This document shows, piece after piece, positions 38,001 to 62,630 of a DNA stretch of 64,000 nt. Source of the stretch: a virus (taxonomy: Duplodnaviria > Caudoviricetes); IMG/VR virus record IMGVR_UViG_3300010163_000018, positions 9,668 to 73,667 of that record. The stretch is one strand, 5' to 3'. Positions within the stretch are counted from its first letter, which is position 1. Every line of letters starts with the position of its first letter. The notes under the pieces were generated by a model, which saw only the letters and a program-made list of their open reading frames with translations, was not told the DNA's origin and made no database searches. A program made the translations under genes and the position numbers.

Positions 38001-41000
38001 CTGCCGAGAAGCGTAATTGGATTAGTTGGTGACGCTTGTTTCAGTGAAGCCTGTGTAACTCCACCAACACGCATACCCATACCCATTGCACTACCAGTGC
38101 TAACCATTGATCCAACAGAAGTGCCTCTGCTTGGTTCATAAGCACCACTACCGGCCATTCTTGCTGCAAGTGAAGCAGGATTAACCTTTTCACCTGTTCG
38201 ACGCGAGTATGCGTCAGCTAATACAACAGGACCACATCCGCGTTCACCCATATTCATATAATTACCATATGAATGCTGGTTCATTGTTGTATTATTACCA
38301 GATCCATACATATATGACCATGAGTTGTTTACCGTGCTTGTATTTACATCACCGGCACCGAAGTCACTACCGAGATTAACCTTTTCTGTATCAACTTTAG
38401 GATCTTCCTTTTCTTCCTCCTTTTTGGAACCGTCTTCACCACCAGGTAGTATTGCTTGGAGTTGAGAGATCATTCCCTCAATACCTTGTTTCATCTGGTC
38501 TACACCTGATGTTATCATTGTCTTTGAGGTGTTGAGCATGTTCTTACCTGTATCGGCAAGACTATCTCCTACTTTACCTACACTACCACCTAAAACTGGG
38601 AATTTACCAATCAATTTAGCGACTGCACCTATGCCGAATAACAAACCACCCAACATACCGATTATAATACCCATTCCTATCTGAAGAATACCTGATATCA
38701 TCTGAAGTTGATAACCGATGTTTTCAATGATAGGCTGAATTATTTGCATTATTATCATGATAGGAACCATGATAACATCTACTAATGCAGTTATGATTTC
38801 TAATATCGGAGTAAGGACATCAAGTAGTGTCTGAATGATTGGTTGTATTGCTTCAATAATAGGCTGAATTACCGCTATCAACGATTCTGCTATTGTAACA
38901 ACTGTTTCGGCTATTGTGGTAACCATGTCTTTGAGTATTGATACTATGGGCTTAATTAACTCCATAACAGCTTCAAATGCTTGATTCAACGGTTCAAGTC
39001 CCTCAGTCAGTATACTCATTACGAGGTCTTTAAGAGCCTGAAGTCCTTCCAAGCTTGCTACAATCGATACAATCAATTCACCTATACCGAGTAATGCCTG
39101 CGAGAATCCTCCGAATATCTCACCGAGATTACCGAGCATATCACCGATAAGACCACCCTTTTTATTAGAACCACCACTGCTACCAGCTGATCCTGCATCG
39201 GGTGTAGATGAGGTTGGTGTCGATGATTCGCCGGAATCTGTTGATCCTTCTTCTCCACTACCACCAGTACCGGCTGATCCTGCATCGGGTGTAGATGAAG
39301 TAGTCGTTTCATCTGAAGGAGGTGTAGTTGATGGATCCGTTCCTGTATCAGTAGAATCTTCTCCATTTTCAGCAACCTGTTCATCATGTATCAGCCCAAG
39401 TTTCTCAGCAATTCCCTTCAGTGATTCATGCATCTTGGATATGATTGATTCTTTCTTTCCAGTGATAGTATCCTCGATGTTTGCCTGTATAGGATTTGCC
39501 TCACGAGCTTCCTTTTCGGATTGCTTCTTTTTCTCCTCAGCAGCTTTTTCTTTAGCCTTTTTGAATCCCTTTGTCATTCCGGATGTAAATCTACCACCAA
39601 GAACTTTCAGTCTACCTTCACCATCACTGGATCTTTTATTCTTTATCTTAGAAACAGCGTTCTTAGCGAACTGTCCAACCTTGCTGTCTGCAATACTCTT
39701 CATTGCTTCTTGTATTTTGTTTTTTACACTCGACATTACATTCTCGGCAAAATCTTTTAATGAACTACCAACCTTGCCTAAGAACCCTACAACCAAACCC
39801 ACAGCTTGACCGATCTTCGAGTTCTTTATTACCGACGTAACTTTCCCAAATTTATCCTTGAAATCTGATATTATGTTCTTAAATGATTTTGTAACATCGG
39901 TTGATATATTCTCGAAAGACTGTTTCAGTACCTTTTTAGGATCTTTAAGAAGATCAGCAACAGTCGCAGTGTTGGTCATCTTCTTTCGTTCTTTTTCTCT
40001 ACCTTTTTTGTCGGTGTATGTTTCTCTCGCAATAGAACCATCGTCATTCCGTACCCATTGACCTGTGAACGTTGTATTGAGTATCTTATCTTTAGCTATG
40101 CCTGCCACTTCTCGGGTTGTAAGGACATTTCCTTTTTTATCTGTAATATGTTTGGAAAACTCCATGTCACCGATTTTATTTACAGCTTTCTTTCCGAGGT
40201 TTATTGCTCCCGCATATACTTTTTTCGGGGCTTCAATAGCAAGGTTCCTTATAAGTCCCTTGTTCTCCGATATAACGTTACCATTTTCATCTTTTTCTTT
40301 TGAACCGAATAAACCGTCCTTCATTGAAAGGAGACCATATTTCAGATCCCTCATGCCTTTCTCAGCTATCTTCATTACGAATTTAGCAATTTTACCAAGT
40401 ACCTTAGTAATACCAGAAAGACCTTTTTTAATTACCTCGAACGGAGATGAAGCTTCGTCACCAGAATCCTTTTGAGGTTTTTCTGGAGCATCTTGTAAAA
40501 CAGAACCGATTTCAGGAGTTTCACCATTAGCAAGTGCTGTTTCTCCCTTCTTACGTTTCTCCTTTATCTCGTCTATTTTTCTTATATCTTTGATATGTTG
40601 AAGTATTGCAGTTTTGACTTTACTGTCATCTATTGATTCTGCCATCAGTTCAGCATCATCAAGAGCACCATCTCCAATATATTGAAGAGCTAACCGTGCC
40701 TGTGATAATGCCATATCATCAGACAATTCCTCAGGATCAAATTCGAAGTTCTTTACACGATTCTCTGCACCTTTTAATGCCATACTGTCGACATTGTATA
40801 TAGCATTATTTGCAAGTCGTCCACCAGTCTGTTTAATTTTCTGGGCATGCTCATTGCTGTCAATTTTACTCTTGACTTTACCGGCAACTTCTTTAACTTT
40901 ACCCTTCGCTCTATCAACAAGACCGTCTTCACCGAAAACCTTTTCCTGTGCTTCTTTCACTCGGCTATCATATGCATACCTGCCAGTGACATATCCTGTG

Positions 41001-43126
41001 GCATCCTTGATTTTCCCCATTGCCTGAGAAGCAGCTTGCCCAACTTTACCTTCCTTTCTGAATAGGCCCTTAATATCATCCTTCAGTGTACCGCTCAATG
41101 CGCGATCAATTAAGGATCCCATTCCTCTACCACCGGCAATACCTAAGAAGTTTCCGAGGAAGGAACCCAATCCGCTTCCTCCTCCGCCAGAGCCTCCTCC
41201 ACCAGCATTATTACCAGTAAGAGAATTCATAGTACCAGACATTACACTGTTTACAGTCTTCTTGATGAGATCATCATCGTCATTTACACCACCACCGTTG
41301 ATCAATGCAGCCATTGCTTTACCAAAGGCTTGATCAGTTGTTGGTAATGGTTTGTCTGGGTTATGCTCAAGATCAAGTTCAGGGAATGGATCCTTTCCTG
41401 TCGTACGAACATTGATTCCTCGGTTCAGGAGTCTAAATATATTACCAAGGTATTCATTGTTGGTATATTTTTCATTTGATCCGGATGCGGTTTTAATTCT
41501 ACCATCGGTAATTTTACCACTATCATCCGAGCTACCGCTTTCACCAGGTTTGATGTATTGATCTTTATGTTCATTCCAGAATTGTGACATTACCATTTTC
41601 TGGGTGATCTTAGATGCTTGTGTTGCATTTCTCTTACCAGATTGAGAAAAATCAATGGCATCAGACATCATATTTTGTAATGACTGATTTATGTTCTGGA
41701 TGAATGTTTGGGAATTCATTATTCCAGATGACAATTGTAAAATGATCGTGTTACAAACAGAAGCCCAGTATTCAGGATCGTTCTTCAAACCACATAATGT
41801 TCTAACAGCGGGAATGACATATTGACTCATGTCTCCCTTAAGATCTGTTAATCTGAACTGTCTGCTTCCCCTTTGGTGTAAGTCCTGGACAATAACTGCG
41901 TTCAACGCTTTAGCGGCAGTATCAACATCAGCCTCCGAGAATTTATCACCAAGAGTCTGTTTCCCTACAGTATTAATACGGTCCTGAACTGTCTGTGATA
42001 ATCCAGTTGATGCAAATGCCTGTTTTGTTACTGAAGCAAATTCATTCTTTGCAGGGCCTTTAACCCAACCACCGTTGTTACTGATATGCCAAGAAACACC
42101 CGAGATAGATTCATTAATGTTAGCGAGCATTTCAGGAATAAGATTGACGATTGTATGGCGGGTCATTCCATCGAACTGTGCCTTCTTGGTATCATATGAA
42201 TTCTTTATAATGGTTCCGTAATCTTTGTCGCCTTCGAATGATGTTATATCACCAAATAATTTTTGGAACGGTTTAGAACCAATTATCTCATTCATTGCAG
42301 CCTGTGTTGCAGTACCAATAGCTTCATTGAAACGCTTACCTATTTCATCAATAGATTTACCACCAAGAGCATTGAACTGTTTATGGGTCACCATTTCAAG
42401 ACCCATCTTGGCAATTTGTTCAGGGGATGTACCCTCGGCGAGTAATTGAGTAGCCAAGGATAGTGAGCTAACAACACTGTTACCACCCAGACCTCGTTTG
42501 GATGCTTCGAATATTCTACCTAACGAAAGCTTTCCATCAGAATATAATCCACCCTTGTCGATCTCTTTTTCTTCTTTTTTATCTTCAAATCCGGTTGTTT
42601 GAATTTTGATAATTTTGTCAAGACGATCACTGATACCCAGAAGTGTTTTGTTGATATTGTTGATGGATGCGAGCATTTCAGATGATCTGTTGTTTACTAC
42701 AGAAATTATTTCCGCTGTATTAGCAACACTTTGCTCTGTTTGACGACGTCCAATCTTAAGGGCTGTTGCGGATTGTTTGTTAGCTATGTCAGACATTGAA
42801 TCCGCATCAAGAGCCTTTGGTCTATCCTCACCATCCAGCTTTGCGCCTTCGGAATCATCTATCTTAAAACCAGCATCAAAGTCATCGCCCATAGATGAAT
42901 CAAATGAATTCTCTTCACCATAAAACCAGTCGGAAATTTTCTTGGTAACATTTGAGGTCTTTAGCCTTGCAAATGTATCAGCTGCATCTGTTGTTGATTT
43001 AGTAAGATTACTTTTTATATCCTTGGCATCATTTATCAATGATTGGATATTCGATGTGTATTCTTTACCAGTCTCCTTAAGTGTGTTACTGATAATCTCA
43101 AAGCTTCGGTTAATAAATTTACTCAT
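35009..43126 (-). CDS. Tape-measure-like tail lysin with C39-like, M23-like, phage tail lysozyme and NlpC/P60 domains
   Basis: 2705 aa, helical N-terminal two thirds; GCGP...HYV...ANP; GNSV...YFHL...GSTG; GMMGCFKHES...GFGIAQFT; DCSG...GDII...HVGMY. Confidence 0.8.
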   Translation of the reverse strand: MSKFINRSFEIISNTLKETGKEYTSNIQSLINDAKDIKSNLTKSTTDAADTFARLKTSNVTKKISDWFYGEENSFDSSMGDDFDAGFKIDDSEGAKLDGEDRPKALDADSMSDIANKQSATALKIGRRQTEQSVANTAEIISVVNNRSSEMLASINNINKTLLGISDRLDKIIKIQTTGFEDKKEEKEIDKGGLYSDGKLSLGRIFEASKRGLGGNSVVSSLSLATQLLAEGTSPEQIAKMGLEMVTHKQFNALGGKSIDEIGKRFNEAIGTATQAAMNEIIGSKPFQKLFGDITSFEGDKDYGTIIKNSYDTKKAQFDGMTRHTIVNLIPEMLANINESISGVSWHISNNGGWVKGPAKNEFASVTKQAFASTGLSQTVQDRINTVGKQTLGDKFSEADVDTAAKALNAVIVQDLHQRGSRQFRLTDLKGDMSQYVIPAVRTLCGLKNDPEYWASVCNTIILQLSSGIMNSQTFIQNINQSLQNMMSDAIDFSQSGKRNATQASKITQKMVMSQFWNEHKDQYIKPGESGSSDDSGKITDGRIKTASGSNEKYTNNEYLGNIFRLLNRGINVRTTGKDPFPELDLEHNPDKPLPTTDQAFGKAMAALINGGGVNDDDDLIKKTVNSVMSGTMNSLTGNNAGGGGSGGGGSGLGSFLGNFLGIAGGRGMGSLIDRALSGTLKDDIKGLFRKEGKVGQAASQAMGKIKDATGYVTGRYAYDSRVKEAQEKVFGEDGLVDRAKGKVKEVAGKVKSKIDSNEHAQKIKQTGGRLANNAIYNVDSMALKGAENRVKNFEFDPEELSDDMALSQARLALQYIGDGALDDAELMAESIDDSKVKTAILQHIKDIRKIDEIKEKRKKGETALANGETPEIGSVLQDAPEKPQKDSGDEASSPFEVIKKGLSGITKVLGKIAKFVMKIAEKGMRDLKYGLLSMKDGLFGSKEKDENGNVISENKGLIRNLAIEAPKKVYAGAINLGKKAVNKIGDMEFSKHITDKKGNVLTTREVAGIAKDKILNTTFTGQWVRNDDGSIARETYTDKKGREKERKKMTNTATVADLLKDPKKVLKQSFENISTDVTKSFKNIISDFKDKFGKVTSVIKNSKIGQAVGLVVGFLGKVGSSLKDFAENVMSSVKNKIQEAMKSIADSKVGQFAKNAVSKIKNKRSSDGEGRLKVLGGRFTSGMTKGFKKAKEKAAEEKKKQSEKEAREANPIQANIEDTITGKKESIISKMHESLKGIAEKLGLIHDEQVAENGEDSTDTGTDPSTTPPSDETTTSSTPDAGSAGTGGSGEEGSTDSGESSTPTSSTPDAGSAGSSGGSNKKGGLIGDMLGNLGEIFGGFSQALLGIGELIVSIVASLEGLQALKDLVMSILTEGLEPLNQAFEAVMELIKPIVSILKDMVTTIAETVVTIAESLIAVIQPIIEAIQPIIQTLLDVLTPILEIITALVDVIMVPIMIIMQIIQPIIENIGYQLQMISGILQIGMGIIIGMLGGLLFGIGAVAKLIGKFPVLGGSVGKVGDSLADTGKNMLNTSKTMITSGVDQMKQGIEGMISQLQAILPGGEDGSKKEEEKEDPKVDTEKVNLGSDFGAGDVNTSTVNNSWSYMYGSGNNTTMNQHSYGNYMNMGERGCGPVVLADAYSRRTGEKVNPASLAARMAGSGAYEPSRGTSVGSMVSTGSAMGMGMRVGGVTQASLKQASPTNPITLLGSGTGFGTKSGNSHYVNVVGTDRNGGAYVANPMTGKVERQSATSLTLNSKLGLYGSGDEENEYEQYGFDEATTEALNKLKTLTGKLTSIFTGDSKADSMKKTIEAADEENKAKTIKRELGDEYEAIEKQAKDQLKADNPKRDGEDDAAYETRMEKLWEKKGNSYIVKLGGQAAYDKGSERGKNMLKGAEEAAAGYEEASSAMEKIDLSEIDSAGSSGESALGAEMAPFSPIINTITDISDKTSSKSPVHDYFAATSGDAFDDDSKRLTSISTLDSGWYGKSDAPVSKEGVGSTGNDSEAIVINNGGNDDTVRAITGGTVTYVTRGGKHGNSDPNGGLGNSVKWRDSAGMYHWYFHLDEVDKAVQEGSNIEPNQILGKFGSTGMTGRSEDFKLLRYMVTKSNSRQTGDDGHINPLTYWKFEESGGELSGDTPEEQTYSYLVSAGMSPIGAAGMMGCFKHESNFQYDNLENIYQDKFGYKAGAEGDASYAADVDSKKESEDDFVYGRHATAYGGQTPGEAVGFGIAQFTSSGLKRDLYNKTVKKGKSITDKPAQLDAILSVLKERGIFEPIKNASNPVEANKIFLWKYEAGTGYTSDEQVLKAYPWMLQSNPNGVVARHNSAEEYYNSFGNKHISPSGSSNKASDKEGVINGRFVSTVSNATGGNKGDLIEAASQVWEAYTNKVPSGTYDHGNRGPVTTRSGITLEHLHPDCSGMLSATMNYMGYTFDPTKSQAGSCDKYRWCTYDIVGKRGSDGFILGPDGKPSDDWIFMDFDPNDMQEGDIITTQEHVGMYIQPGSDDQNALGFDAGNGSRTAIVGPGQAKSYLDGDPNWRSKLQWTMGPSYPGLRTTLRYVGSKAPAEDDSSNSKFAFSGATAPKGSGDVSDFWTDSVYGSNNVQMDVPPLDMSKLMDESNENNGVSPIIVNKYDIKPDQTNNSELLDKMSKMTFNVRARRVEQLLEELIEKIDGDKPKPQPTTDATDTNLFQSNDIPEQVTRLSRG

Positions 43127-44555: not shown

Positions 44556-45857
44556 TCAAGTAGTGGGATAATTAACTCGCCAGATCTGCTCTGATCTGTT
44601 TATGGGACGAATACGGAGAATTTTCGCGAGAAGAGTTTCCAATTCCCGTTTCATCATCTCCAAGTATTGTTTGTTATGTGGGACAATATAACGAGCATCC
44701 TGTGTATCGAGTACCGTGAGATAGAAATCAACGAGTTCTATCTTTGAGCAAGTGTAACCGCTCAACATTGCCTGATCATTTGCAGAATGTATATCATTCA
44801 TTTCGACAGTTATGTATGCTATAATGTCCCTTGGGATCGGCTTAAGTTTCTTGGGTTTCTTTGATAAGAAGCCTTCCTGCTTGACTTCTGGTACCTTGAT
44901 ACTGTTAGATGTAGCATTGTTAGCGGCGTTAGCAGCAGCTTTTGTGGTAATATCGGATTTTGTTTGTGCTGACATATGTGAAGGAACAGTATTAACAGAA
45001 CCATTGACTGTTGCTTCCGTGGCAGCCTCTTCTTCAACTACCTCTTCTCCTTCTTCTGGAGAATCACTACTGTCATCAACTACTTCTGTTTCTGCAGTGC
45101 CTTCATCGCCGTCACCCGACTCTTTTATTGTTTCTTCGTCCTCTTCATCTTCGTCGGCATCGTTATCTTCGTTCTCATCTTTATCCTCGTCTTTGTCCTC
45201 ACCCTTCTCAAGAGCGTCAATATCGAAATCATCATAAGAATCGCAACAGTCATCATCTGTTACACAATCCTCAGGATCGGTATCACATATCTCATAGACA
45301 TCTTTACGAAGACCCCTTATTTCTTTACCGAGTTCCATGCCGTATGGGACTTCCTTATCCTTCTCAATGTAGTTATCAACGACATCGGAAACATCATGTT
45401 TCTTAGATGAAAGGTCTTTGATAAGATTAACACCATTCTGACGATCCCCATCATCAACACTAAATGAACCATCATCATGCATCTTACCAATGACGATTGC
45501 AATTATGGGTTTCAAATGTTTGGGTGTACATCTGCCATCATTTACCATGGCCTCATAAGGAATTGATGTACGTTCGATCATTGTCGCATTGCGATCAACT
45601 TCATCTGCATCATCGAATATAGTACCATTGGCAATAGCCTGGGCAACATGACCCTCTTGAACATAAGTCATATCTTTGGGACACAATACCCTTGTATTGC
45701 CGTTGGTATCTTTGTATATTCTGACACCATTGCCAGCATATTCGTTGATAATGATATCACTCTTATCTGGATGACCTATGTGGGCATATTCAGATATCAC
45801 AGAATATTTCTTCTGATTTATGAGGTTTTTAACAATATCAAAATCAATACTACTCAT
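44556..45857 (-). CDS. Head protein with long acidic linker and YVQEG / VKQEG sites
   Basis: D/E-rich middle; hydrophobic-X-E motifs; start taken as MSSIDF at 45857. Confidence 0.65.
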   Translation of the reverse strand: MSSIDFDIVKNLINQKKYSVISEYAHIGHPDKSDIIINEYAGNGVRIYKDTNGNTRVLCPKDMTYVQEGHVAQAIANGTIFDDADEVDRNATMIERTSIPYEAMVNDGRCTPKHLKPIIAIVIGKMHDDGSFSVDDGDRQNGVNLIKDLSSKKHDVSDVVDNYIEKDKEVPYGMELGKEIRGLRKDVYEICDTDPEDCVTDDDCCDSYDDFDIDALEKGEDKDEDKDENEDNDADEDEEDEETIKESGDGDEGTAETEVVDDSSDSPEEGEEVVEEEAATEATVNGSVNTVPSHMSAQTKSDITTKAAANAANNATSNSIKVPEVKQEGFLSKKPKKLKPIPRDIIAYITVEMNDIHSANDQAMLSGYTCSKIELVDFYLTVLDTQDARYIVPHNKQYLEMMKRELETLLAKILRIRPINRSEQIWRVNYPTT

Positions 45858-45908
45858 TATAAATAACACATCCGTTCTATATTAAATTTAATTTTGGAGG
45901 TTTTACCC

Positions 45909-46519: not shown

Positions 46520-48526
46520 TTAGCCTCCGATTTCAGTTGAACCTGCATCAGCGTCAACAGTCTTAACAACACCAGCCTTGATATCAGGAACGATTTCAGT
46601 GTTCTTGAAGATTACGCGACCCTGGATACCCTGAACTGCGATTGTCTTGTACTGGGATGATGTTGTAACGAGAGCAGCCTGACCACCTGGATTGTTGATA
46701 TCCTGGTAACCAGCATTCTCAGGTGAGTTTGTAAGGTGACGTGCGAAGCGGAGGTGCTTGTTTGTGATGTGGTGAGGATCCATCGGATATGCAACGATAT
46801 TGAGGAAGTACTCTCTTGACATATCGCCCTCAGCAGAACCTTCCTGGTATGCAGGAATAAGCGTGTATGCATCAACACGGTTAGAAGCAACGACACGAAT
46901 AGGAAGATCGGAATCTGTAACAAGGCCGTAGCTGTGATTCATCTTAACGCCGCCGATTTCTGTAGATTTCTTAACAGTCCATGATACAAAAGGATTGAGG
47001 AGTCTGCAAGCCTTAGGGTTGCCGTATACAACGAAGCCGAGGTTTTCAAGCTTGCCGCGGTCACTGAGCTCGTAGATTACAGAATTGATAGCATTGTAGA
47101 TAGCATTTGATCTGTATTCGAAAGGATCACCAGCAAAGCCGGGAGAGATAGATGTAGGACTGAGGTCTACGTACTCTGTATGAGTATAGCTCTCGAGAGA
47201 CCATATATCCGAATCATAGCCGTCGTACATATCAAACTGCTCATCAAGGAATTCAAGAATTGATTCATCCTCGAACAGCTCCTGATTGATGATAAGCTGC
47301 TGAACAAGTCTGTTGTAGAGATTGAAGTTAAGTGAAGTATTAGCTTCAGTAAAGTCTTCCACAGTGAAAGGAACCTGGAATCTGCAGCCATCGTCGATGA
47401 GGAACTTACGGATTTCAGGATACTCACGGAAGCCGATTGTTCTGAGGTTTGTTTCGTTTGAGATAGTGCCGTTTACATAGAGGCCTGTGATCTGACCGCA
47501 TGCAGAAGCTGTAAGAGTACCCTTAACGAAATCAACGTAACCAGAAAGATGATCAGAGAAAGAAACTGTTTCACCAGTATTCTTGTTTGTTTCCGGATCA
47601 ACAACGGGAAGCTTCATGTTCTCAGTAATACCGCCGTTAAGAAATACGCCGCCTGTCTGAATATCAATAGCAATACCAGCACCGGGGAGCTTTACCTTCT
47701 TACCGTCATACTGAATGTACTGAATGTTGAAGTTATAGGAAAGACGAGTACGCAGTGTCTTCTCGAAAGCGCCTGCAGAGCCCTGAGCTGGATACGGTGT
47801 ACCATCGTCCTGGAGCAGGTGGTTGAACATATCATATTTCTTATTAGGTGCATTTTTGATATCATCGAGCAGGATAGGATCCTTGTCATTGATTCTTACA
47901 CCCTTACCAGCGTTATAGAGCTTCTTCCATGTAGGTGTGCCGTCAGGCTCCTTCTGCCAGTATACATGCGGTACTTCATACTCTTCGCCGGTCTGGTTGT
48001 TTACGAGATACTTGATAAGAATACGCTGTTCGATGTTAACAGAGGATGTTGTCTGAACAGGCATAATCTCCTTGCCGAGGAAGCGGATATACTGCTTAAT
48101 CAGTGCCGGGAAGTCGAGAGTTGCAAGAGGAAGATATGTAGATGTATTGTAAGATTCCTGGATCAGGAAGCTCTTAACAGATTCATCCCACGCCTTGTCA
48201 AGCTGATGAGCAACGCTCTCAAGATGATACTTCTCACCGGGATCTGTTGCAGCATCAGCTGCCTCCATGAACTCTTGGAGAATAGGCTGAAGCATCTCCT
48301 CTTTGTATGAATTCATAATGTCGGGATTATCCATCATCTTCTTGACATCTTTTCTGATATCAACGCCGTTATATGCATCCTTGATATTCATTGCAGCTTC
48401 CTGGAAGTTCTGATCGAAAGTATCGTTTAATGCGTCGAGTTCCGCTTCAGATAATGAATTCACCATATTCATCTGCTCCTGGAACCATGTTCCACGAGTA
48501 CCTACTAATGATCTGTTGTAAGCCAT
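46520..48526 (-). CDS. Major capsid protein precursor
   Basis: 668 aa with high-expression codon bias; prodomain ending FLIQE(124)-SYNTSTYLPLATLDFP, then IMPVQT; located downstream of scaffold-like and protease genes. Confidence 0.8.
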   Translation of the reverse strand: MAYNRSLVGTRGTWFQEQMNMVNSLSEAELDALNDTFDQNFQEAAMNIKDAYNGVDIRKDVKKMMDNPDIMNSYKEEMLQPILQEFMEAADAATDPGEKYHLESVAHQLDKAWDESVKSFLIQESYNTSTYLPLATLDFPALIKQYIRFLGKEIMPVQTTSSVNIEQRILIKYLVNNQTGEEYEVPHVYWQKEPDGTPTWKKLYNAGKGVRINDKDPILLDDIKNAPNKKYDMFNHLLQDDGTPYPAQGSAGAFEKTLRTRLSYNFNIQYIQYDGKKVKLPGAGIAIDIQTGGVFLNGGITENMKLPVVDPETNKNTGETVSFSDHLSGYVDFVKGTLTASACGQITGLYVNGTISNETNLRTIGFREYPEIRKFLIDDGCRFQVPFTVEDFTEANTSLNFNLYNRLVQQLIINQELFEDESILEFLDEQFDMYDGYDSDIWSLESYTHTEYVDLSPTSISPGFAGDPFEYRSNAIYNAINSVIYELSDRGKLENLGFVVYGNPKACRLLNPFVSWTVKKSTEIGGVKMNHSYGLVTDSDLPIRVVASNRVDAYTLIPAYQEGSAEGDMSREYFLNIVAYPMDPHHITNKHLRFARHLTNSPENAGYQDINNPGGQAALVTTSSQYKTIAVQGIQGRVIFKNTEIVPDIKAGVVKTVDADAGSTEIGG

Positions 48527-48580: not shown

Positions 48581-49198
48581 TTATTGACTATTTTTAATCT
48601 TCTTCAGATTGGTATCGATTTTCTTCAGTAGAAGAGTATACAAGCTATCTAACTTTTGATAGAAAAGAAGATTCTCACCATAACCAGAATCTACGAAATC
48701 ATTGATAACGTATTTTTGTCCTTTGGATAAGGCGGACTTGAGTTGACCTATTGATTCATCATTACTCTTGACAACATCAGATGGAAGCAAGGGTACAATA
48801 TCTTTGATGTCATTGAGAATTTCATCTATCTCACTATTACGAGCAACCATCTTTTTATACAATTGCTCATTCAAGATATTATTAGCTTTATCAGAAAGCT
48901 TTGTATCCTTTTTATCAGCTTCTTCTTCACCATCATCTGAGCTACCTGAAGAATCACCTCCGTCATCCATACCACCATCGCCATCGTCACCAGACATCGA
49001 TGAAAAGTCCATACCACCATCGTCTTCATTTAATGCGGGTGGATCACCAATATCTCCACCATCATCACCAGTATCAGTAGCAGGAGGGGCAATGTCTTCA
49101 GAGGGCATATCACCACCTGTGTCAGCCCCGCCTCCATCGAACGGTTGTAACTCGTCTCCGTCGGCTTCCATGACTGCAAAAAATAAACCTTTTGACAT
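48581..49198 (-). CDS. Acidic protein, candidate scaffold/core protein
   Basis: Directly upstream of the capsid gene; FAVMEA motif, D/G-rich disordered half, helical C-terminus. Confidence 0.5.
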   Translation of the reverse strand: MSKGLFFAVMEADGDELQPFDGGGADTGGDMPSEDIAPPATDTGDDGGDIGDPPALNEDDGGMDFSSMSGDDGDGGMDDGGDSSGSSDDGEEEADKKDTKLSDKANNILNEQLYKKMVARNSEIDEILNDIKDIVPLLPSDVVKSNDESIGQLKSALSKGQKYVINDFVDSGYGENLLFYQKLDSLYTLLLKKIDTNLKKIKNSQ

Positions 49199-49219: not shown

Positions 49220-52200
49220 TTACCATGATTCACGAGGATGTTTGATCTTAGAACCTGTGATACGCATGTAATTTTCTTCCATTTTACCTTTAAGACGCAT
49301 ATATTCAAATTTCGTCTTAACATCTTCAAGTTTACTGGAATGATCCAGTTCACGTATCTTCTCATTAATGATTTTGAGCTCTGTTTCAAGCTCATGTTGC
49401 GCTTCCTTTTTGAGTCGCTGCTTGTCTGCAAGTTTGAGACCTTGGATACCAGCATATGCAGCAGCCAGATAAGGTTGTAATGTAAACAGGATACCAGTGG
49501 CTCCTAATTTCAGACCAACCCTTGCAGCTTTATATACTGACGAACGATAGCTCGGATTATCAAGAATCTCAGCTTTAACCTGATCTTCATCCCTTTTGAT
49601 AAGGGAATCGACCGTTTTAGTCAGCCATTGTTTGGTTCTGGTAATGGGCTTAAGTACAGCTCTACCGGTATTAGCAACTTTCTGCACACCTTTCTTACCC
49701 TTCTGCTGAAGAGCCAGGGTTTTACGGTCTGCATCCATTGCTTTTGTAAGTGTGTCCTCCTTAGGAGGTTTTCCAGCACCTTCTCCTTTTGACAGGGGCT
49801 CTTTGGATTCCAAGAACATAAACATCTCCTGAATGGTTTGTCCAGAGGATAGTTTCTGTTTACCGTCCTTTTGGGCGATGGACTCCTTAGTGTCAGCAGG
49901 TTCGTTGCTATTATTATTATTGTTAGAACCCTTGCCGATTCCCTTCTTACTTCCACCTTCATTATGTGAGGAATCGTAAGTGTTGTGATGGGAACTGTTA
50001 TTGTTGGAGTCTCTTGTGGTCTTTCCGGTGGAATGATCATCGATGGTTGTTGTCTTAGTATTGTTGGAGTCCTTATTAAAGGAATTGGTATAGTTGTTCG
50101 TTATGTTGACGACAATCTTTCCATCAGCATCTTTCTTGTTCGGATTGTTTTCAAATCCGGAACCGAGCATATCCCCAAGGGTGTCTCCATCAGTATCCAT
50201 TTTAGCATCAACCGAATCAGCAATGTCATCAATGGGATTTGTAGGAACCCCTTCAGGCAGCGATGTTGGAGTAACTGTTGTCCTGAGATCATCGGACATC
50301 TTAAATCGAGTCTTCATGTACTCAGGTATTTCGCCCTTCTCCTGTTCCATTATTACTTGGAAATCGTCAAGATCGATAATACCATACTCCTTGACATATT
50401 TCTGAATGAACTTCTGTCTCATTTTGCAGCCACGTCTTGCCTCGACCAATATTTCGCTCATGTCATCGAGCGCTTTTTCTGCGGCGTTTAACAGTGTTAC
50501 TGGATTTTGTTTAAGCAGTTCTTGTTTTGACTTGAGAAGCTTGCGATAATCACGAATCGATCTTCTAAGGTCGTCAAACATTTTATCAATGTTTGTGTCT
50601 GTTCCGGCACAATATTCCATAGGAGTCGTTCCTATTGATTTACAAGATTGATCAATCTCTTTCTTCAATTGATCATTGCTTTCTTTAATGGACTTTATTT
50701 TCTCGGAAAGACGTTCTGTTTGTTTTGTAAGAGCGTCCAAATCAGCAGGTGATAGACTCTTCATCTTTTTCTTTGCGATTTTTAATTCTTTACGGGCTTT
50801 TTCGTAGTCTTCTAATGCAAAATTTGAATCCAATAACGTCTTTTCATTATCTTTGTATAAATGATTAAGAGCATTGATCGCCGTTCTCTTGGATGTATGT
50901 TCTGCAGCATATTTATCAGCAACATATTCAGTTCGCTGACGATCATGTTCATTTAATTGATTATGCTGTTTGCTGTCTTTAATGAACTTCTTCGCAAGAG
51001 CTTCTTGACCCTTTGCCTTATCCTCATCATATGAAGGATGTGTTGGACAACCGGCCATAACATTGATATGGTCATATGCAATATGCCCTTCTTCGTGTTT
51101 TAAAGCAAAAGCAGATTTCCACTCTTTCTGCTTTAAAGCTTTACGAGTAATATGAATCTCATATTTGCTGGGGTCAATCTTGAAATTTCCGGTTTCTTTG
51201 TCAATAACATAATCACCATTGGGATCCCTGACAATCTGGTTTGTAACACAGGGTCCGTATATTTTAGCTATATCGTCATCGATCGAAAGTTTAACACGCA
51301 TCTTCTCCTTACCACCAGGAAGATCAATGTCAGTTTTGATTGTATCAGTTTTGGGATCATAATCAAACTTCTTGAGCGTTCTCTTGAAATGAGTTTGTTT
51401 ACTCTCCTGGAATACAAATGACTCTTGTGTTGTTTCGCCTTCATTAGAATCTTTCGGTTCTTCGTCAGGTGTAGCACTCTCAAGAGACTTGATGAAACCG
51501 AGCGAAGGTTCTATCCCAAGAATTTCCTTTGCAATAGATGCGACCTTACGGGTATCATTAGATTCCTTGATATTCTTACCGATCAAGGGATTCATCTTGA
51601 TTCCCTTAACAAGTTTGAGCATATCGTCAATCTTCTCTTGAAGATCTTTAAGAATTTCTACATCACTCGAATTGTACTTACCACAAGAACCACCTTTAGC
51701 AATATTAATATACTTTGCAGCCTGTTTAAGATTTCCCATTGTTTCGGACTTGAATATGTTTATACAAGCATTGTTCGTCCACTGTTTCTTCTTACTGAGG
51801 TCTTCGATTGTTTTCATGTCCCTCATAAGAAGTGAAATAGCAGTATTGAGTCTTTCGTTGTTGGTTTTGGTAGTTGCCTCTTGGAATACATAATCCGGGG
51901 AACCATCATAATATGCTTCTCTTACAAAAGATTCATCCTGGAGGAATTCAAGGTCGTCCTTCAGATCAACGATTCTTTTCGCAATAACAGCGATCTCTTT
52001 GACACGGGATTGAATCTTTGTATTATTGAACAGATTCATGTGTTTAGACCAGTTAACTGGGTTAACCCAAAACAGTTTAACACATGCCCACAAGTCACCA
52101 GTAAGATCATTCAAATGGGTCAACGTTTTAAGTTGCTCATTGGTAAAGTTACCACTCTTACCTTTGATGGCCTTCTTTGTCCATTTATAAACCTGCTTTA

Positions 52201-53929
52201 TATCAGTATGACCTTCAGTAGATCCAGTTACATTTGGGAGCAAGGATAACACCATACCAGCAGTTGTTTTGTAACGATGAACAAATGAATTGTTATTCCA
52301 ACGATGCTTCTTATCCATGTCAACGATCTTTTCCATCTCATCCATCAAAGCACTTACAGCCGTCTGAAGATTCTCACGCCTCTTTTCAACACTGGCTTCC
52401 TGGATAAGGTCCTCGAGCTGTTCATTGAGATCGTTAAATGATTCTCCGATATATGCATCGATAAGGAACGGTGACAGATTTGCATTGTACATCTTGTCAG
52501 AAATCGTTTCGATCTCTTTCTCAACAAGATAACCATACTGTTCACAATACATCATATCAGATATTGACATATCGCCGAAGGAACGTAATTCATCAATAAC
52601 AGATTCTGATACTGTTTTCGAAGTTTGTTTTGTGGTATCATTTGTATCGTTACCGGAACCATCATCATTTTTGTATGCTGCCTTGGTCCGAGAGTTCTTA
52701 TTGATTCTGCCTCTTACATCTTTAACGAATCGATCCTCATCATTAGTCGTACCTCCACGTACATTGTGGGCGATATCGAGATATATGCGTGAATCAAATA
52801 TATTGAAAATTGTAAGAAGTGTATTGTTTGAAATAGATGCATCGGGGTCATTGATGAGGTTAAGTTTGAAGAAGTCTTCAATGAACTTGATCGTTCCTTC
52901 CTTGTCTGATTTGAATGTAGAGAACAGATCATATTTCTCAAATCTCTTAGCACCTTTATTCTGTTTGAGAATTGATTCATATGACTTATGGTAGTCTTCA
53001 CACAAAACCGTATCAAACGGAAATTTCTTAGTATTATTGAAGACTTTCACGAGGATATATGGAACTATGTTTTCGTCCAATTTAATACGTGTCCAGAAAT
53101 AAAAGTCTTTACTAAAGAATTTAAGGAGATCTTCTGTTGTATCACATTTACGCAATTCCATAACCAAATCATCGGTAAATTTTTCAAACTCTTTAGATAT
53201 TACCCACTTCTTTGACTTTTCGTTGTACTTAATGTGTTCAGGTTTTGTCTTCTCGAAGTAATTCACTTCAGCAGCCTCTTGAACCGAGTCATCAACAAAT
53301 ATCTCAATGTCAACAAGATCCTGACGGTTGTATACTCTTTCAATCTCTTTTTCTTCATCCATGTCTTCAGGAAGAGAAATGAGATCATTTTTCATAATAC
53401 CATCAACATAGATTTTCTCATCAAAGATTCTCTCTTCGATATCCAGTTCAGGGATCTCATCAAATTTCAAGGGTTCCGAAAAAGTATTGAGAACGTCTGC
53501 AATCTCGGACGGTTTGACGAATGCATTGAACGTGTATATACCGTTGATGAATTTAGTGAAGTCCTCGAAATTGTCAGCAATATGCTGAAGCATCTTGAAA
53601 CCGACATATGAATCAATTGCTCCCGTGAGGGTATCATTATTTGAATTTACAATAGTCTCGTATACTCCATCAGCGGGATTAATATCCTGAATGGTGTCGT
53701 TAATCATCTGGATTACTGCATTCACTTTAGACTCGTCTTCAAGCCATGTAGGATCAACTGTTTCGAGTCGTGTCATTACTCTTTCAACAATCGGCTCAAG
53801 CTGATAGTCCTCGTCAAGAACAGGAAAGTTCCTGACTTTGAATCCCGATTGAATGAATTCATTTAAGCTGTTTATAGCAGTCTGAATACCGGTGAAGTAT
53901 TCATTTTTGATTATAATATTCTTGCTCAT
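49220..53929 (-). CDS. Large head protein / apparent polyprotein with duplicated domain and HEXXH zincin module
   Basis: VQE218, IQE511, FQE684, FQE842, VKE1181/IME1195, FLE1374; two homologous ~160-aa domains; HEEGH(945-949)...EYVAD(1001). Confidence 0.75.
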   Translation of the reverse strand: MSKNIIIKNEYFTGIQTAINSLNEFIQSGFKVRNFPVLDEDYQLEPIVERVMTRLETVDPTWLEDESKVNAVIQMINDTIQDINPADGVYETIVNSNNDTLTGAIDSYVGFKMLQHIADNFEDFTKFINGIYTFNAFVKPSEIADVLNTFSEPLKFDEIPELDIEERIFDEKIYVDGIMKNDLISLPEDMDEEKEIERVYNRQDLVDIEIFVDDSVQEAAEVNYFEKTKPEHIKYNEKSKKWVISKEFEKFTDDLVMELRKCDTTEDLLKFFSKDFYFWTRIKLDENIVPYILVKVFNNTKKFPFDTVLCEDYHKSYESILKQNKGAKRFEKYDLFSTFKSDKEGTIKFIEDFFKLNLINDPDASISNNTLLTIFNIFDSRIYLDIAHNVRGGTTNDEDRFVKDVRGRINKNSRTKAAYKNDDGSGNDTNDTTKQTSKTVSESVIDELRSFGDMSISDMMYCEQYGYLVEKEIETISDKMYNANLSPFLIDAYIGESFNDLNEQLEDLIQEASVEKRRENLQTAVSALMDEMEKIVDMDKKHRWNNNSFVHRYKTTAGMVLSLLPNVTGSTEGHTDIKQVYKWTKKAIKGKSGNFTNEQLKTLTHLNDLTGDLWACVKLFWVNPVNWSKHMNLFNNTKIQSRVKEIAVIAKRIVDLKDDLEFLQDESFVREAYYDGSPDYVFQEATTKTNNERLNTAISLLMRDMKTIEDLSKKKQWTNNACINIFKSETMGNLKQAAKYINIAKGGSCGKYNSSDVEILKDLQEKIDDMLKLVKGIKMNPLIGKNIKESNDTRKVASIAKEILGIEPSLGFIKSLESATPDEEPKDSNEGETTQESFVFQESKQTHFKRTLKKFDYDPKTDTIKTDIDLPGGKEKMRVKLSIDDDIAKIYGPCVTNQIVRDPNGDYVIDKETGNFKIDPSKYEIHITRKALKQKEWKSAFALKHEEGHIAYDHINVMAGCPTHPSYDEDKAKGQEALAKKFIKDSKQHNQLNEHDRQRTEYVADKYAAEHTSKRTAINALNHLYKDNEKTLLDSNFALEDYEKARKELKIAKKKMKSLSPADLDALTKQTERLSEKIKSIKESNDQLKKEIDQSCKSIGTTPMEYCAGTDTNIDKMFDDLRRSIRDYRKLLKSKQELLKQNPVTLLNAAEKALDDMSEILVEARRGCKMRQKFIQKYVKEYGIIDLDDFQVIMEQEKGEIPEYMKTRFKMSDDLRTTVTPTSLPEGVPTNPIDDIADSVDAKMDTDGDTLGDMLGSGFENNPNKKDADGKIVVNITNNYTNSFNKDSNNTKTTTIDDHSTGKTTRDSNNNSSHHNTYDSSHNEGGSKKGIGKGSNNNNNSNEPADTKESIAQKDGKQKLSSGQTIQEMFMFLESKEPLSKGEGAGKPPKEDTLTKAMDADRKTLALQQKGKKGVQKVANTGRAVLKPITRTKQWLTKTVDSLIKRDEDQVKAEILDNPSYRSSVYKAARVGLKLGATGILFTLQPYLAAAYAGIQGLKLADKQRLKKEAQHELETELKIINEKIRELDHSSKLEDVKTKFEYMRLKGKMEENYMRITGSKIKHPRESW

Positions 53930-53930
53930 A

Positions 53931-54773
53931 TTAGAAACCTCCCTCCATAATTATGGAAAGAGCTTCCTTACGAATATCCCCTCTTAACGGAACATGAATC
54001 TTGGACTTGCATTGTTCAAATACAATACTTCCGTTGTCAATACCCATAATCTCATCAGTCGAGAACTGGAAAGCTTCACACACAACCTGCATTGTCTCAT
54101 CCTTCTCGCAACAATACTTTGCCAGTTCCTTAAGGAATACAACAGAACCTTCCATATGTACTGCGGGTTTGATATCTGCTTCTGCACCATCATGCGATGG
54201 AAAGTCCACCATGTCAAACGTAATAACCTTTGACACACTCATATTAGGCTGAGTGGGTGATGCATTAGGAATCATGTTGCCAAGCAAACGAACCGAGAAA
54301 CAAGGTACGGCACCGATATCCATTATTTCAGAATTAACAGATCTACCATTCGCTGTAGCCGGATGCACAACAATATGAGCACGATAACGACTACCCTCAA
54401 GTCGAGGGCGGAATATAAAATGAGAAGAGAGTTCAGGTTCCGGAATAGTCATACGGATGTCTGTTAACTGTTCACCCTTAATGTCCGGATTGGGGTGGTT
54501 CCATTCACCACGCCATTGATTACGGCGAAGAAGATCGCGAATTCTTTCATCTGATGCAATTACAGTATCGATATTATTGCCATCATAACGACGATGCATT
54601 CTGTTATGAACACCAAACGTCATCATTGTTGAATCGAATTCACAGTATGGGAGTCCAGTAGCAGCCGACTTTTTCACAATGTACCCATTAGGAGACAATT
54701 CAGATGATACCGGAGATTCTTGAACAAAACATGCAGTCTCATACTTGTTTGTCTGTGTACTCTTTAAAGCCAT
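53931..54773 (-). CDS. Prohead maturation serine protease (T4 gp21 / phiKZ gp175 type)
   Basis: GEWNHP (H93), CFSVR (S160), TFDMVDFPSH (D187) match the gp21 triad pattern; self sites FVQE19 and HME208. Confidence 0.85.
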   Translation of the reverse strand: MALKSTQTNKYETACFVQESPVSSELSPNGYIVKKSAATGLPYCEFDSTMMTFGVHNRMHRRYDGNNIDTVIASDERIRDLLRRNQWRGEWNHPNPDIKGEQLTDIRMTIPEPELSSHFIFRPRLEGSRYRAHIVVHPATANGRSVNSEIMDIGAVPCFSVRLLGNMIPNASPTQPNMSVSKVITFDMVDFPSHDGAEADIKPAVHMEGSVVFLKELAKYCCEKDETMQVVCEAFQFSTDEIMGIDNGSIVFEQCKSKIHVPLRGDIRKEALSIIMEGGF

Positions 54774-54867: not shown

Positions 54868-56472
54868 TCACATATTGTACCATGACGAAGAAGTTCCTGT
54901 TGTTTCATCGTCATAATCATCGTCGTCATTGATATCAAAATATGACTCAAGAATGATCTTGCCATCCTTACCAACATTCACACTCTTAATTCCGGGAACA
55001 ATATCTTTACCATTGTTGCCGTAGCTGTTTGCTTTGACAAATTTCTCGTTACCGTCCTTAGAAGTTACCAGTTTGCCGTCTTTAACTGACCAGCTTTTGT
55101 ATTTACCAGTACTCTGGAGGAGTTTAAGAGCTTCGTCTGCAGATACTTCGTCTCCGGATTTATATGACTTCTTTGTATCAGATGAACCGGCGTCACCATT
55201 ATTATCATCAGAGTGTTTAGTTTCATTACCGAAGTCCTTTGCATCTTCTTCCGCTGAAGCGCTCAGATCATCGGTTGCAGGTTGGTCGGCGTCACCTTTT
55301 GATACGCCGTAATCGAGCAGTTTATCCAATTCACCTTCGCTGTTAAAGATATTTTTAACGTGGTTAAAAGCACCTTTGACCAAATCATTGACAGTCGTTG
55401 TGATAAACGATCCCACATTGTTAGTTGCCGTCTGCAGCTGGTTCATTTTTTGCTGGATGGGACCCATTGAAGCAGCCATATTTTTAATTTCTTCGTCTGC
55501 AAATTTTATGTCCCATTTAGTAGCATCACATTCAGGATTCTTCATGACAATATCAATAGCATCACTGGTACCTTTGATAGCTTCATAGATTTCCATCGCA
55601 GTATACTCAGCCGCCTCTGTGGTTACGATCTCATCCGCAGGAATATTCGCAATTGCGTCATACGCTTTGAGAGCAGCATCAACCGAAGCCTCAACTTCAG
55701 GGACCTTTGCAGTCGCTACTTCGGCATTCTTAATTTGCTGACGCCATTGTTTGTTGTACAACTTAATTTCTTTGATCCTCTTGAAATATTCCGGAATCGC
55801 TTTGATTGCCTCGATAATCTTTTTAAAGCCGACGTTGGTTTTGAATTTATTTCCAACAGTTATCTCGAAAATAACCTTTCGACCTTTCAATCCAGACTCC
55901 AGATTTCTGAAGATCTTCTTGAACTTGTCGATTATAGCCTGAAACATTCCTGTCAATTTGTCTCTGTTGATAAAACCAACGAAACCGAGAACAGCAGTAA
56001 GCGCAGCAGCACTACCAATACCAAGTTCCTTAGCATGCTCCTTTACCCATGACTCATCCTTACCGAGAACCTTGTTAACAAAGCCAACGAATGAATTAGA
56101 AACATCTTTAACTTTATTAACAGCCTGTAGTGCCGCAGGTTCGATCTCACCCTTCCAAGCCTGCTTTATGAAAACCCATATCTTTTTAATAAGATTGACA
56201 GGGAACATCAATATCCTGTACCAGAGTTTGTCTGCATGGGGTGACTTCTTTGCATTAGCATCTGATCCGGAGGGATCACCATCAGCAACTTCTGCTTCCT
56301 GGAATATAGAGAACATGTCGAGATCTTCACCGGAATAATTCTCCATAATAGTTACTGCCTTGTCATATGATGCTGATAACGCATCAAATACGGACATCTC
56401 GGATTCCATAACGGTATTGTTTATACCATTAATAGAACTGAGCACTTCATCACGTAATGTTGTATTGTTCAT
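54868..56472 (-). CDS. Leader-bearing internal head (ejection-type) protein
   Basis: Leader ending FSIFQE59-A; amphipathic helix; hydrophobic LGIGSAAALTAVLGFVGFIN; C-terminal IILES plus acidic tail. Confidence 0.75.
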   Translation of the reverse strand: MNNTTLRDEVLSSINGINNTVMESEMSVFDALSASYDKAVTIMENYSGEDLDMFSIFQEAEVADGDPSGSDANAKKSPHADKLWYRILMFPVNLIKKIWVFIKQAWKGEIEPAALQAVNKVKDVSNSFVGFVNKVLGKDESWVKEHAKELGIGSAAALTAVLGFVGFINRDKLTGMFQAIIDKFKKIFRNLESGLKGRKVIFEITVGNKFKTNVGFKKIIEAIKAIPEYFKRIKEIKLYNKQWRQQIKNAEVATAKVPEVEASVDAALKAYDAIANIPADEIVTTEAAEYTAMEIYEAIKGTSDAIDIVMKNPECDATKWDIKFADEEIKNMAASMGPIQQKMNQLQTATNNVGSFITTTVNDLVKGAFNHVKNIFNSEGELDKLLDYGVSKGDADQPATDDLSASAEEDAKDFGNETKHSDDNNGDAGSSDTKKSYKSGDEVSADEALKLLQSTGKYKSWSVKDGKLVTSKDGNEKFVKANSYGNNGKDIVPGIKSVNVGKDGKIILESYFDINDDDDYDDETTGTSSSWYNM

Positions 56473-60535: not shown

Positions 60536-61015
60536 TTACAATGCAATCTTTCTGATATATAAGCGATTTAATCTATCATAAGAAATTCCTATGATAACAT
60601 GTGCACTTTCATTACCATATCCAAGTCTCTCAGTTCCGGATACTTCCACAACGAGTGCAGTTATACCATCAGAAGTTTTATCAAATCGAACATCAATATC
60701 GAAACCAACCATATCAATGTAATTACATTGATTTATCAATTTCTCTTTGATTTTACCAGGAAGCTTACGATCATCATCATACTCAAACAGATATGATTCT
60801 ATATCAATTCCGAGTTCGGGGATTGATGGATATTGACCGGGTTTCATAAACAACAGCATCAGGATAGTATTGACACCCAATTCAAAGGTTGATAAAACCT
60901 TTGGCTTAAACATCGAATCCGTATCTAACACAACATCGTAGTTGAGTGTTTGAAAAACTTGAGGGATCCTACCATTGATTTCTTCAAGGTAAATACCTTT
61001 AGTATCAAGAGCCAT
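60536..61015 (-). CDS. gp25-like baseplate/sheath-initiator protein
   Basis: ILMLLFMKPGQYPSIPELGIDIESYLFE matches the gp25 family motif; start reassigned to 61015 after GGAGGTG. Confidence 0.7.
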   Translation of the reverse strand: MALDTKGIYLEEINGRIPQVFQTLNYDVVLDTDSMFKPKVLSTFELGVNTILMLLFMKPGQYPSIPELGIDIESYLFEYDDDRKLPGKIKEKLINQCNYIDMVGFDIDVRFDKTSDGITALVVEVSGTERLGYGNESAHVIIGISYDRLNRLYIRKIAL

Positions 61016-62630
61016 AGTATTCACCTCCATTGATGAAATCATCAGTGAAACTTTCCGTAACAACAACCCCTGTCTTATCCACAAAATTCTTCAATGTTTC
61101 CTTCAAATCCTTTGCTGCTTCCGGATCAAGTTTCTTTGCCTGTTTTCTATCATTAGGATTATCGATATCTTCAATACCTTCATGAAGATCGACAATGTAT
61201 TGGAGATATTTCCTTACCGCCGGTTTTAATTTTTCTCCTGACGAGAGTACCTGTTTAGCCATTCGATACGAAGTCAGTTCTCTGTCAAAGTTCAACGGAT
61301 GTTCATCCTTTGTAGAATTGCTTATCTGTTGATCAATACGTCGCATCTTCTTTGCTTTTTGAGCGTTCTGTTTATTGAGTTTGATTTGCCTATTGAATGA
61401 GCTTAAATGAATAGGGAGTTTATACATTCCCGCAAACAGATCACAGAAGTATTCTTCCTTAACGGTAACACTTATACCAAATAGGGTCATTACTTTCTTC
61501 TTCAACATTGATAAAGCCATGATTGCCATACACACGGTTCCTGCAATGGCAGCGATGGAACTACCAACAATGAAACCAATACCAGCTAACAATATAGAAC
61601 ATACTGCCCCAATGATCTTACCGGTCTTTCCTATATTAACGACTTTTTTGATCAATAGGAGTTGTTCGATATATTTATCCATTTCTTCTTCATTGTTTGT
61701 TTTGTCGGCATTGTTTTGAACATCTGATTCAAACTTTTTAATCGCCGCAGTATTGTCCTTTATCTGGGCCAATACATATAAACGATTAGAAGTCCGTTTC
61801 TTATCAATCTCTTTTTTCTTAATATTAAACATATTCATGAATCTATCAATAAATGATGATATAATCGAAGACGAAGAAACGACATTCTTTGACTCACCCA
61901 CAGAAGATATAGTCTTCTGTATATCCGCGTGGAGTCGTTTGTTTCTAATATCCATCATATGTACAATGTTATGATAAATTTCATGAAGAGTTACTGCGAC
62001 AAAAGATTGACCGAATAACGTCCTATCGGCAGGACATATTTCCAATACCTGACGTGGATTAATGTTCAGAGTAACTAACAACCCACCCAATTGGAAACCC
62101 TTTGACTTAGATATCGTGAGTTTTCCAATATTGTCTCCCGTAGGGAATACGGTTCCAATGCCTTGCTTCTCACTTACATATATTTTGAATTTACAATCAA
62201 ATTGTTTTTCCAATTCATTGAATCCTTCAGCAAATCGACCATTGGGTTTTCTGAATTCATTCCGGACATTTTGTACTATCTCATCTGGATATTTTGATCC
62301 AGGAGCAAATGTATCAATAGCCTTTAATTCACCACGTTCTTGTCTCCTTTTCAACTCATCAAATTCTTCATTAAATGCAACCTTTGAAAATGATTTATTG
62401 AAACATTTGATTGCTTTTAAGATGTGCTTATTTTCAAATTTAAACACATCGAGTTCTTTTGAGGAACCCGGTTTAAAAAACCCTTCTTGGAAACAATCAT
62501 ATTTACTTTCGAGATCTATATCGTCAGAATATTCCATGATCATTTGCTGTTTGATATACATCTGATCAATTGAATTTCTAACTTCATCGATCATCTCGAG
62601 ACTGCATTCATTAATGAATGATAAATCCAT
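61005..62630 (-). CDS. Leader-bearing HtpX/M48-like membrane zinc metalloprotease
   Basis: Diverged leader ending DCFQE49-G; HEIYH (61971-61985), two-TM hairpin, EEYFCDLFA (61440-61457), HPLNFDR; C-terminal VVTES. Confidence 0.75.
   Translation of the reverse strand: MDLSFINECSLEMIDEVRNSIDQMYIKQQMIMEYSDDIDLESKYDCFQEGFFKPGSSKELDVFKFENKHILKAIKCFNKSFSKVAFNEEFDELKRRQERGELKAIDTFAPGSKYPDEIVQNVRNEFRKPNGRFAEGFNELEKQFDCKFKIYVSEKQGIGTVFPTGDNIGKLTISKSKGFQLGGLLVTLNINPRQVLEICPADRTLFGQSFVAVTLHEIYHNIVHMMDIRNKRLHADIQKTISSVGESKNVVSSSSIISSFIDRFMNMFNIKKKEIDKKRTSNRLYVLAQIKDNTAAIKKFESDVQNNADKTNNEEEMDKYIEQLLLIKKVVNIGKTGKIIGAVCSILLAGIGFIVGSSIAAIAGTVCMAIMALSMLKKKVMTLFGISVTVKEEYFCDLFAGMYKLPIHLSSFNRQIKLNKQNAQKAKKMRRIDQQISNSTKDEHPLNFDRELTSYRMAKQVLSSGEKLKPAVRKYLQYIVDLHEGIEDIDNPNDRKQAKKLDPEAAKDLKETLKNFVDKTGVVVTESFTDDFINGGEYYGS

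Follow-up and report, generated by a model that had tools for sequence, protein, structure and literature searches.

Prohead proteases of the S80 family and of the T4 type cut after glutamate within a three-residue motif, and their substrates are the capsid protein, the proteases themselves and internal head proteins (PMC10052503, PMC5694885). In these systems several cuts within a long propeptide break it into small pieces that can be removed (PMC10052503, PMC5694885). In phage SPN3US, 13 of the 14 mapped cuts remove N-terminal propeptides of single proteins, and no multi-product chain or cassette slot has been described there. The T4 internal proteins IPI–III and Alt enter the prohead by means of a leader, which is removed by the protease, and are co-injected with the DNA. 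The polyvalent proteins of Iyer, Burroughs, Anand, de Souza and Aravind (2017, PMC5512222) are large, mosaic, encoded among virion genes and often zincin-bearing, and are predicted to be delivered together with the DNA. It is already established or published that prohead proteases process many head proteins, that leaders direct cargo and that polyvalent proteins are mosaic; our literature search found no paper on a head polyprotein of a phage in which prohead-protease sites mark off cassettes within a constant chassis. Here we analyse such a candidate, a 1569-residue protein encoded by an open reading frame (ORF) at 49220-53929 on the minus strand of a 64,000-nucleotide stretch of viral DNA (the window; positions 9,668 to 73,667 of IMG/VR record IMGVR_UViG_3300010163_000018).

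The protein consists of a constant chassis, with domains N1 and N2 in front and C1 and C2 at the back, around one insertion point, which is occupied here by two helical modules, R1 and R2, and a zincin-like module, Z. At every junction there are one or two sites that read hydrophobic-x-Glu followed by Ala, Ser or Gly, in which x is Gln more often than Met, and Met more often than Thr. Because the ends are constant, the modules swappable and the junctions bounded by the motif, several proteins are probably loaded into the head as one chain, and we consider it likely that this is a head polyprotein cut by the protease encoded next to it. The whole chain would co-assemble into the prohead, and the adjacent S80-family protease would then cut after the junction Glu residues, as at the leader of the capsid protein, giving seven products or so (residues 1-218, 219-496, 512-671, 685-836, 843-1181, 1196-1368 and 1375-1569) and five short spacer peptides that would be released and discarded. 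In a single chain, leaderless cargo could ride along at fixed stoichiometry, and folded products too big to escape the shell would stay in the head and probably be ejected with the DNA. We infer the cutting by this protease, the packaging as a chain, the retention and ejection of the products and the effector roles of the modules; the R modules may be structural rather than effectors.

As with phiKZ gp175, SPN3US gp245 and T4 gp21, a serine protease whose gene lies among those for the head would cut after Glu, and its targets would be the capsid protein, the protease itself and internal proteins. The likeness to the T4 internal proteins lies in three genes of the window that bear a common leader, although this leader family has no sequence similarity to the T4 leader. 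In the polyprotein, by contrast, cargo modules follow one another behind a single chassis and do not each have a leader, and the protein starts with a folded 218-residue domain and not with a leader of ∼55 residues; hence it is no member of the T4-type cargo with a capsid-targeting sequence, but it may work like it. Similar to the polyvalent proteins, it holds at least two unrelated domains, is encoded among late virion genes and occurs in mosaic architectures. Unlike them, it has a head-protease motif at its joints, a constant chassis and non-enzymatic modules among its cassettes; for the polyvalent proteins, processing by their own metallopeptidase was predicted, and PMC5512222 gives no junction motif and does not mention SUKH domains. 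Fusions of MuF with toxins, going by their mention in PMC5512222, also combine a constant virion part with variable cargo, but as far as that mention goes they have one terminal cargo and no cleavage joints.

Cores, cassettes and paired sites

All parts of the polyprotein are given here on the minus strand, with ↓ marking a candidate cut. N1 (residues 1-218, 53276..53929) is a helical N-terminal domain that ends in DSVQE218↓AA; this VQE↓AA exit is retained in 59–61 of 62 homologs, and N1 may be a propeptide or a targeting part. N2 (residues 219-496, 52442..53275), the best conserved core domain, ends in YIGE496↓S and is present in 153 of 153 homologs. The spacer that follows (residues 497-511, 52397..52441), from E496 to LIQE511↓A, is the cassette slot, and its equivalent joins the N core directly to the C core in the homologs P0098, P0116 and P0087. 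R1 (residues 512-671, 51917..52396) and its paralog R2 (residues 685-836, 51422..51877) are separated by spacer 672-684 (51878..51916), which runs from FVRE671↓A to VFQE684↓A. After R2, spacer 837-842 (51404..51421) runs from TTQE836↓S to VFQE842↓S, and E842 is found only where a zincin follows R2. Z (residues 843-1181, 50387..51403) is the zincin-like module followed by a coiled coil and ends at a conserved VKE1181↓, from which spacer 1182-1195 (50345..50386) leads to VIME1195↓QE, at the invariant start of the C core; the anchor hydrophobic-[QM]-E↓QE.G[DE]IP.YM is maintained family-wide. C1 (residues 1196-1368, 49826..50344) is a disordered tract rich in Asn, Thr, Asp and Ser that ends in TIQE1368↓MF, and spacer 1369-1374 (MFMFLE1374↓S) together with C2 (residues 1375-1569) occupies 49223..49825. 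C2 is a basic helical domain with a Gly/Ala-rich hydrophobic helix at 1471-1498 and a C-terminal helical hairpin.

Five of the junctions are thus double sites (496/511, 671/684, 836/842, 1181/1195 and 1368/1374), with spacers of 6–15 residues. The conservation of the sites was scored in 62 non-redundant homologs with two R modules. The P1 Glu is kept in 62/62 at positions 511, 671, 684, 836, 1195 and 1368, in 61/62 at 218 and 1374 and in 57/62 at 496, and the surrounding residues are hydrophobic at P3, Q, M or T at P2 and A, S, G or Q at P1'. Outside the zincin, 12 of 102 Glu residues are invariant and 8 of these 12 are predicted P1 sites; put the other way, 8 of the 9 predicted P1 Glu are invariant compared with 4 of 93 other Glu (Fisher p 2e-8; 218 and 1374 are counted among the eight).

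An earlier note on this DNA had proposed a polyprotein whose modules, an excisable zincin among them, are bounded by protease sites. The ORF at its coordinates and all the motifs quoted there are present, and the homology claimed for segments 512-684 and 685-842 is borne out by their end-to-end alignment (BLASTP E 7e-17, 26% identity); R1 and R2 form a single family across six phages. The sites that it quoted do lie at junctions, but its list was incomplete, and E496, E671, E836 and E1368 were added because five junctions are double sites. LQE765↓K is not conserved and was dropped as a site.

In an AlphaFold2 (AF2) model of a minimal homolog (md92cd31dcfa0; overall predicted local distance difference test score, pLDDT, 70), N2 reaches a pLDDT of 80–93, and the equivalent of site 218 maps to a loop of low confidence (residues 221-225) that links two confidently modelled domains, in keeping with an accessible site. 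Beyond the slot comes a disordered region, with pLDDT below 50 for the counterpart of C1, whose disorder is also indicated by its composition, and the C-terminal 170 residues form long helices. This model found no match in BFVD and only generic helical hairpins in the PDB (residues 805-885), and two protein-atlas look-ups on the fold of the chassis gave no usable lead. Searches with the whole polyprotein against Pfam and PHROGs returned nothing meaningful, and a MuF domain was not detected. The R modules had no Pfam or PDB match and no stand-alone relatives.

We collected 153 homologs of 869–1577 residues from 5.8 billion proteins and 37 viral loci. All 153 share the N core, up to YIGE↓S, and the C core. 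Between the cores, 39 homologs have only a spacer of 4–21 residues, 9 have one R module, 75 have two, 7 have two R modules plus the zincin, and 18 have one or two domains that open with E↓GFFS.LFGKK. These last are SUKH-like: of eight proteins tested, seven match nearly the whole profile of PF09346 SMI1_KNR4 (SUKH-1), all short of its 25.4-bit cut-off, with E values between 6.5e-5 and 0.06 and a top score of 24.0 bits, and a SUKH profile search of PDB sequences found nothing. On a tree of the cores (FastTree, 105 rows) at least 26 changes of architecture are required.

Because global alignments of distant homologs fragment long gaps, the boundaries were tested on near-identical pairs. Seven near-isogenic pairs, with cores 96–98% identical, differ by whole cassettes of 168–299 residues, and the edges of the indels lie within the junction spacers. 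P0006 and P0028 (cores 98.1% identical) differ by a 287-residue zincin insert between VTE↓ and IME↓, so the whole zincin comes and goes as one piece, as the word excisable in the earlier note implied. P0096 differs from P0098 (97.4%) by 168 residues with a repeated E↓SY[DN]IF flank, and P0103 differs from P0098 (98.1%) by 259 residues at the same place and with the same repeated flank; P0095 and P0108 (96.5%) differ by 299 residues. Between P0053 and P0076 (96.6%), R1 was lost via a join between two spacers, and R1 is missing as a unit in both P0076 and P0081. Thus recombination inside the spacers adds, removes and exchanges cassettes, and indels that ignore the QE boundaries, which the earlier note had named as evidence against itself, are not what these pairs contain.

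Within the window, no DNA direct repeats flank the cassettes. Some relatives (L028:3001-6792 and L034:3001-6960) have a second slot inside N1, near residue 82 of the window protein, which lies between VQQE↓G and PVQE↓AAEE and holds an insert that begins with a Gly/Ala-rich hydrophobic helix (GVIGAAMGITAALFALANIV). Short matches to the C core were not taken as naturally split forms, since these ORFs seem to be cut short by a contig end or at an internal Met codon.

The protease and its candidate cleavage motif

The gene upstream of the polyprotein (53931..54773, minus strand) encodes a putative prohead serine protease of 280 residues that matches phrog_3014 (E 4e-10), annotated as ‘head maturation protease’, and PF20034 Peptidase_S80. 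The match of the window protein itself to PF20034, at 22.6 bits, is 0.8 under the cut-off of 23.4 bits, and 12 of 12 aligned homologs match the family at E <= 0.01 (best E 3.8e-8), which places the gene, on profile evidence, in S80 at family level. A search of PDB sequences gave no match to the protease. H93, S160 (within CFSVR), H194 and Q18-E19 are invariant across the 12 homologs, and the choice of catalytic His and Ser among them is by analogy. The candidate self-cleavage sites FVQE19↓S and HME207↓G flank the catalytic part; the former is invariant (FVQE19↓) and the latter semi-conserved (H[QM]E207↓[SG]).

The motif is a property of the whole phage. [VILFMY]QE[ASG] occurs 19 times in the 35 ORFs of the window compared with 2.27 expected, 4 times in the polyprotein compared with 0.20 expected, and 15 times in the other 34 ORFs compared with 2.07 expected, and in each case none of 2000 shuffles reached the count. 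The residue after hydrophobic-Q-E is A, S or G in 19 of 31 cases in the window. In the major capsid protein, SFLIQE124↓SYN is invariant in 19 homologs and stands at the position where the leader is removed in related systems. The capsid protein also has WFQE17↓Q near its N terminus, invariant in 19/19 homologs; because of this second site besides IQE124↓S, the capsid leader may be cut into pieces. With its hydrophobic P3 and Gln-preferring P2, the window motif is nearer to the (L/I)-x-E of T4 than to A/S/G-x-E.

The zincin cassette and the competing explanations

The Z module has HEEGH at 945-949 with a downstream Glu, E1001, and across 18 relatives of the module H945, E946, G948, H949 and E1001 do not vary, which confirms the gluzincin pattern recognized by the earlier note. 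With residues 843-1195 as the query, a full search across 1.84 billion representative proteins yielded 27 relatives, which lie in proteins of 280–2368 residues and all have HE[EQLV]GH. Many of them start directly after IYQE↓, IFME↓, VITE↓, IIQE↓ or like sites, and the family ends at a conserved F..K.VKE↓. No Pfam family was hit at E <= 1 and no PDB sequence matched. The AF2 model of Z is confident over residues 1-190, which form a sheet and the HEEGH helix. Its alignment with ZMPSTE24 (VIA-align Z score 8.5, root-mean-square deviation 3.8, 128 residues) is within the noise range for helical models, as are the weak M48/M13-type matches to PepO, ECE-1 and BepA (Z scores 7.4–7.7), and a Foldseek search of the PDB was dominated by coiled-coil noise. 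One distant relative lies within an 1887-residue protein that also bears a Gln_amidase toxin domain, a co-occurrence that links the Z module to the world of polyvalent proteins (PMC5512222).

The same cassette is found outside the polyprotein. A second carrier in the window, P0179 (437 residues, 44556-45869, minus strand), consists of an N domain, an acidic linker of 120 low-complexity residues and a C domain that opens with VKQE332↓GFLSKKPKK. Its ortholog P0123 (756 residues; N domain 51% and C domain 82% identical) is encoded on a 249-kb contig, L041, and has a Z cassette in place of the acidic linker of P0179; the gene order of this contig matches that of the window, and its polyprotein has two R modules and no Z. 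Moreover, the stand-alone zincin proteins P0135 and P0129, which come from other samples, have a leader of ∼55 residues ending in FSI[FI]QE↓. The leader of P0135 is 46% identical over 52 residues to the leader family of the window, where genes at 54868-56472 (minus strand), 25672-26274 (plus strand) and 61005-62630 (minus strand) have the same leader, ending in FSI[FI]QE↓ or CFQE↓. By its sequence, this looks like a capsid-targeting leader family. With Z in the polyprotein, in P0123 and in leader-bearing stand-alone genes, one cassette thus appears in three delivery formats. This agrees with the reading of the inter-site intervals as cassette slots in the earlier note, whose interpretation is supported by the present analysis, all of its computationally testable predictions having come out as anticipated.

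The main rival explanation is that the chain is cut but that its products are structural, as a scaffold, a core or an inner body that organises the large head or its DNA, and are not injected, with the small pieces expelled like the fragments of T4 gp22. The polyprotein gene does occupy the position of a scaffold gene between the protease and capsid genes, and no other cleavable scaffold is evident, because the neighbouring 205-residue protein has no site; no catalytic motif is seen in the R modules or in C2, which are helical, and the R module is confined to the polyprotein family. However, the metal-binding motif of the zincin is invariant, and the module recurs in leader-bearing cargo genes and in multi-enzyme proteins of 1900–2400 residues, relatives hold SUKH-like domains in the same slot, and rapid swapping among near-identical phages suits cargo driven by conflict better. 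Hence we regard purely structural products as unlikely.

It is more improbable still that the virion contains the protein uncut, as a ‘polyvalent’ protein of several domains, the motif being a favoured linker or a joint for recombination. Some polyvalent proteins, for example the N4 virion RNA polymerase, are indeed packaged unprocessed (PMC5512222), but the identical motif stands at the leader boundary of the capsid protein and flanks the protease domain on either side, places at which this superfamily is as a rule processed, and paired sites, short spacers and invariant P1 Glu in otherwise variable linkers would not be expected of passive linkers. We give hardly any credence to processing of the chain by the zincin module itself, as predicted for the metallopeptidase domains of polyvalent proteins (PMC5512222) and in keeping with the intact HExxH...E motif of the module, since 146 of 153 homologs have no zincin and yet keep all junction sites, and since the motif is phage-wide and includes the capsid protein. 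Both the uncleaved protein and zincin self-processing fit the data poorly.

Several points weigh against a head polyprotein cut by the neighbouring protease. Cleavage and packaging of the polyprotein and its relatives are deduced from sequence, and the window motif is unlike the A/S/G-x-E rule measured for the phiKZ and SPN3US proteases, so that the specificity assigned to the protease comes from sequence statistics. Furthermore, the R modules and both cores match no fold or function in the searches made, and a tblastn search with the polyprotein against 50,697 phage records found no match, and hence no cultured relative in that collection. The 2705-residue tape-measure protein (35009-43126, minus strand) has IQE1140↓A, VQE2072↓G and MQE2485↓G, with about 0.3 expected from window-wide shuffles. 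A tail protein is an unexpected substrate for a head protease; either the tape measure is itself processed or some occurrences of the motif mean something else.

If the chain is cleaved as proposed, tailed phages would use a true polyprotein strategy for virion cargo, with a rule that can be read from sequence, namely a chassis that stays constant, Glu-specific sites in pairs and spacers that are discarded, and packaged proteins and their mature termini could be predicted from jumbo-phage metagenomes. It would also point to fast-evolving injected proteins, including a new zincin family, and the SUKH-like domains among them may neutralise host toxins. It would further suggest a natural scaffold by which foreign proteins could be loaded into the heads of large phages, and the near-isogenic cassette swaps are ready-made natural experiments. 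More tentatively, and here we lean slightly to the side of doubt, the system might be a general cargo-loading platform in which the chassis junction serves as a multiple-cloning site, where site-flanked domains are inserted by recombination in discarded spacers. Cassettes (zincin, SUKH-like domains of immunity type and others) would then shuttle among leader genes, the polyprotein chassis and the second carrier, and near-identical phages would thereby inject different anti-defence sets.

Genomic setting

The source record is 73.7 kb long with a CheckV completeness of 27%, and relatives of the window genes sit on contigs of 250–295 kb, so the window is taken to be part of an uncultured jumbo phage with a genome of about 270 kb. 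The region is a structural module with genes for the tape measure, tail proteins, the major capsid protein and the head-maturation protease. The polyprotein ORF starts 1 nt after the stop codon of the protease gene (TAA T ATG), a gap that the earlier note had given as 2 nt, and its Shine-Dalgarno sequence falls within the final protease codons; the two genes are probably translationally coupled. The order protease, polyprotein, 205-residue gene and capsid is found with the genes adjacent in 30 of 39 fetched loci. The major capsid protein (668 residues, 46520..48526, minus strand; phrog_20655) is 22% identical to capsid proteins of Staphylococcus jumbo phages. IMG/VR marks direct terminal repeats on the 73.7-kb record, but given the completeness of 27% and the relatives of 250–295 kb, the terminal repeat is probably no true genome end. 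Between the polyprotein and capsid genes, the conserved 205-residue protein (48581-49198, minus strand) lacks the protease motif; its N-terminal half is an acidic tract extremely rich in Gly and Asp, and the protein may have a scaffolding or decoration role.

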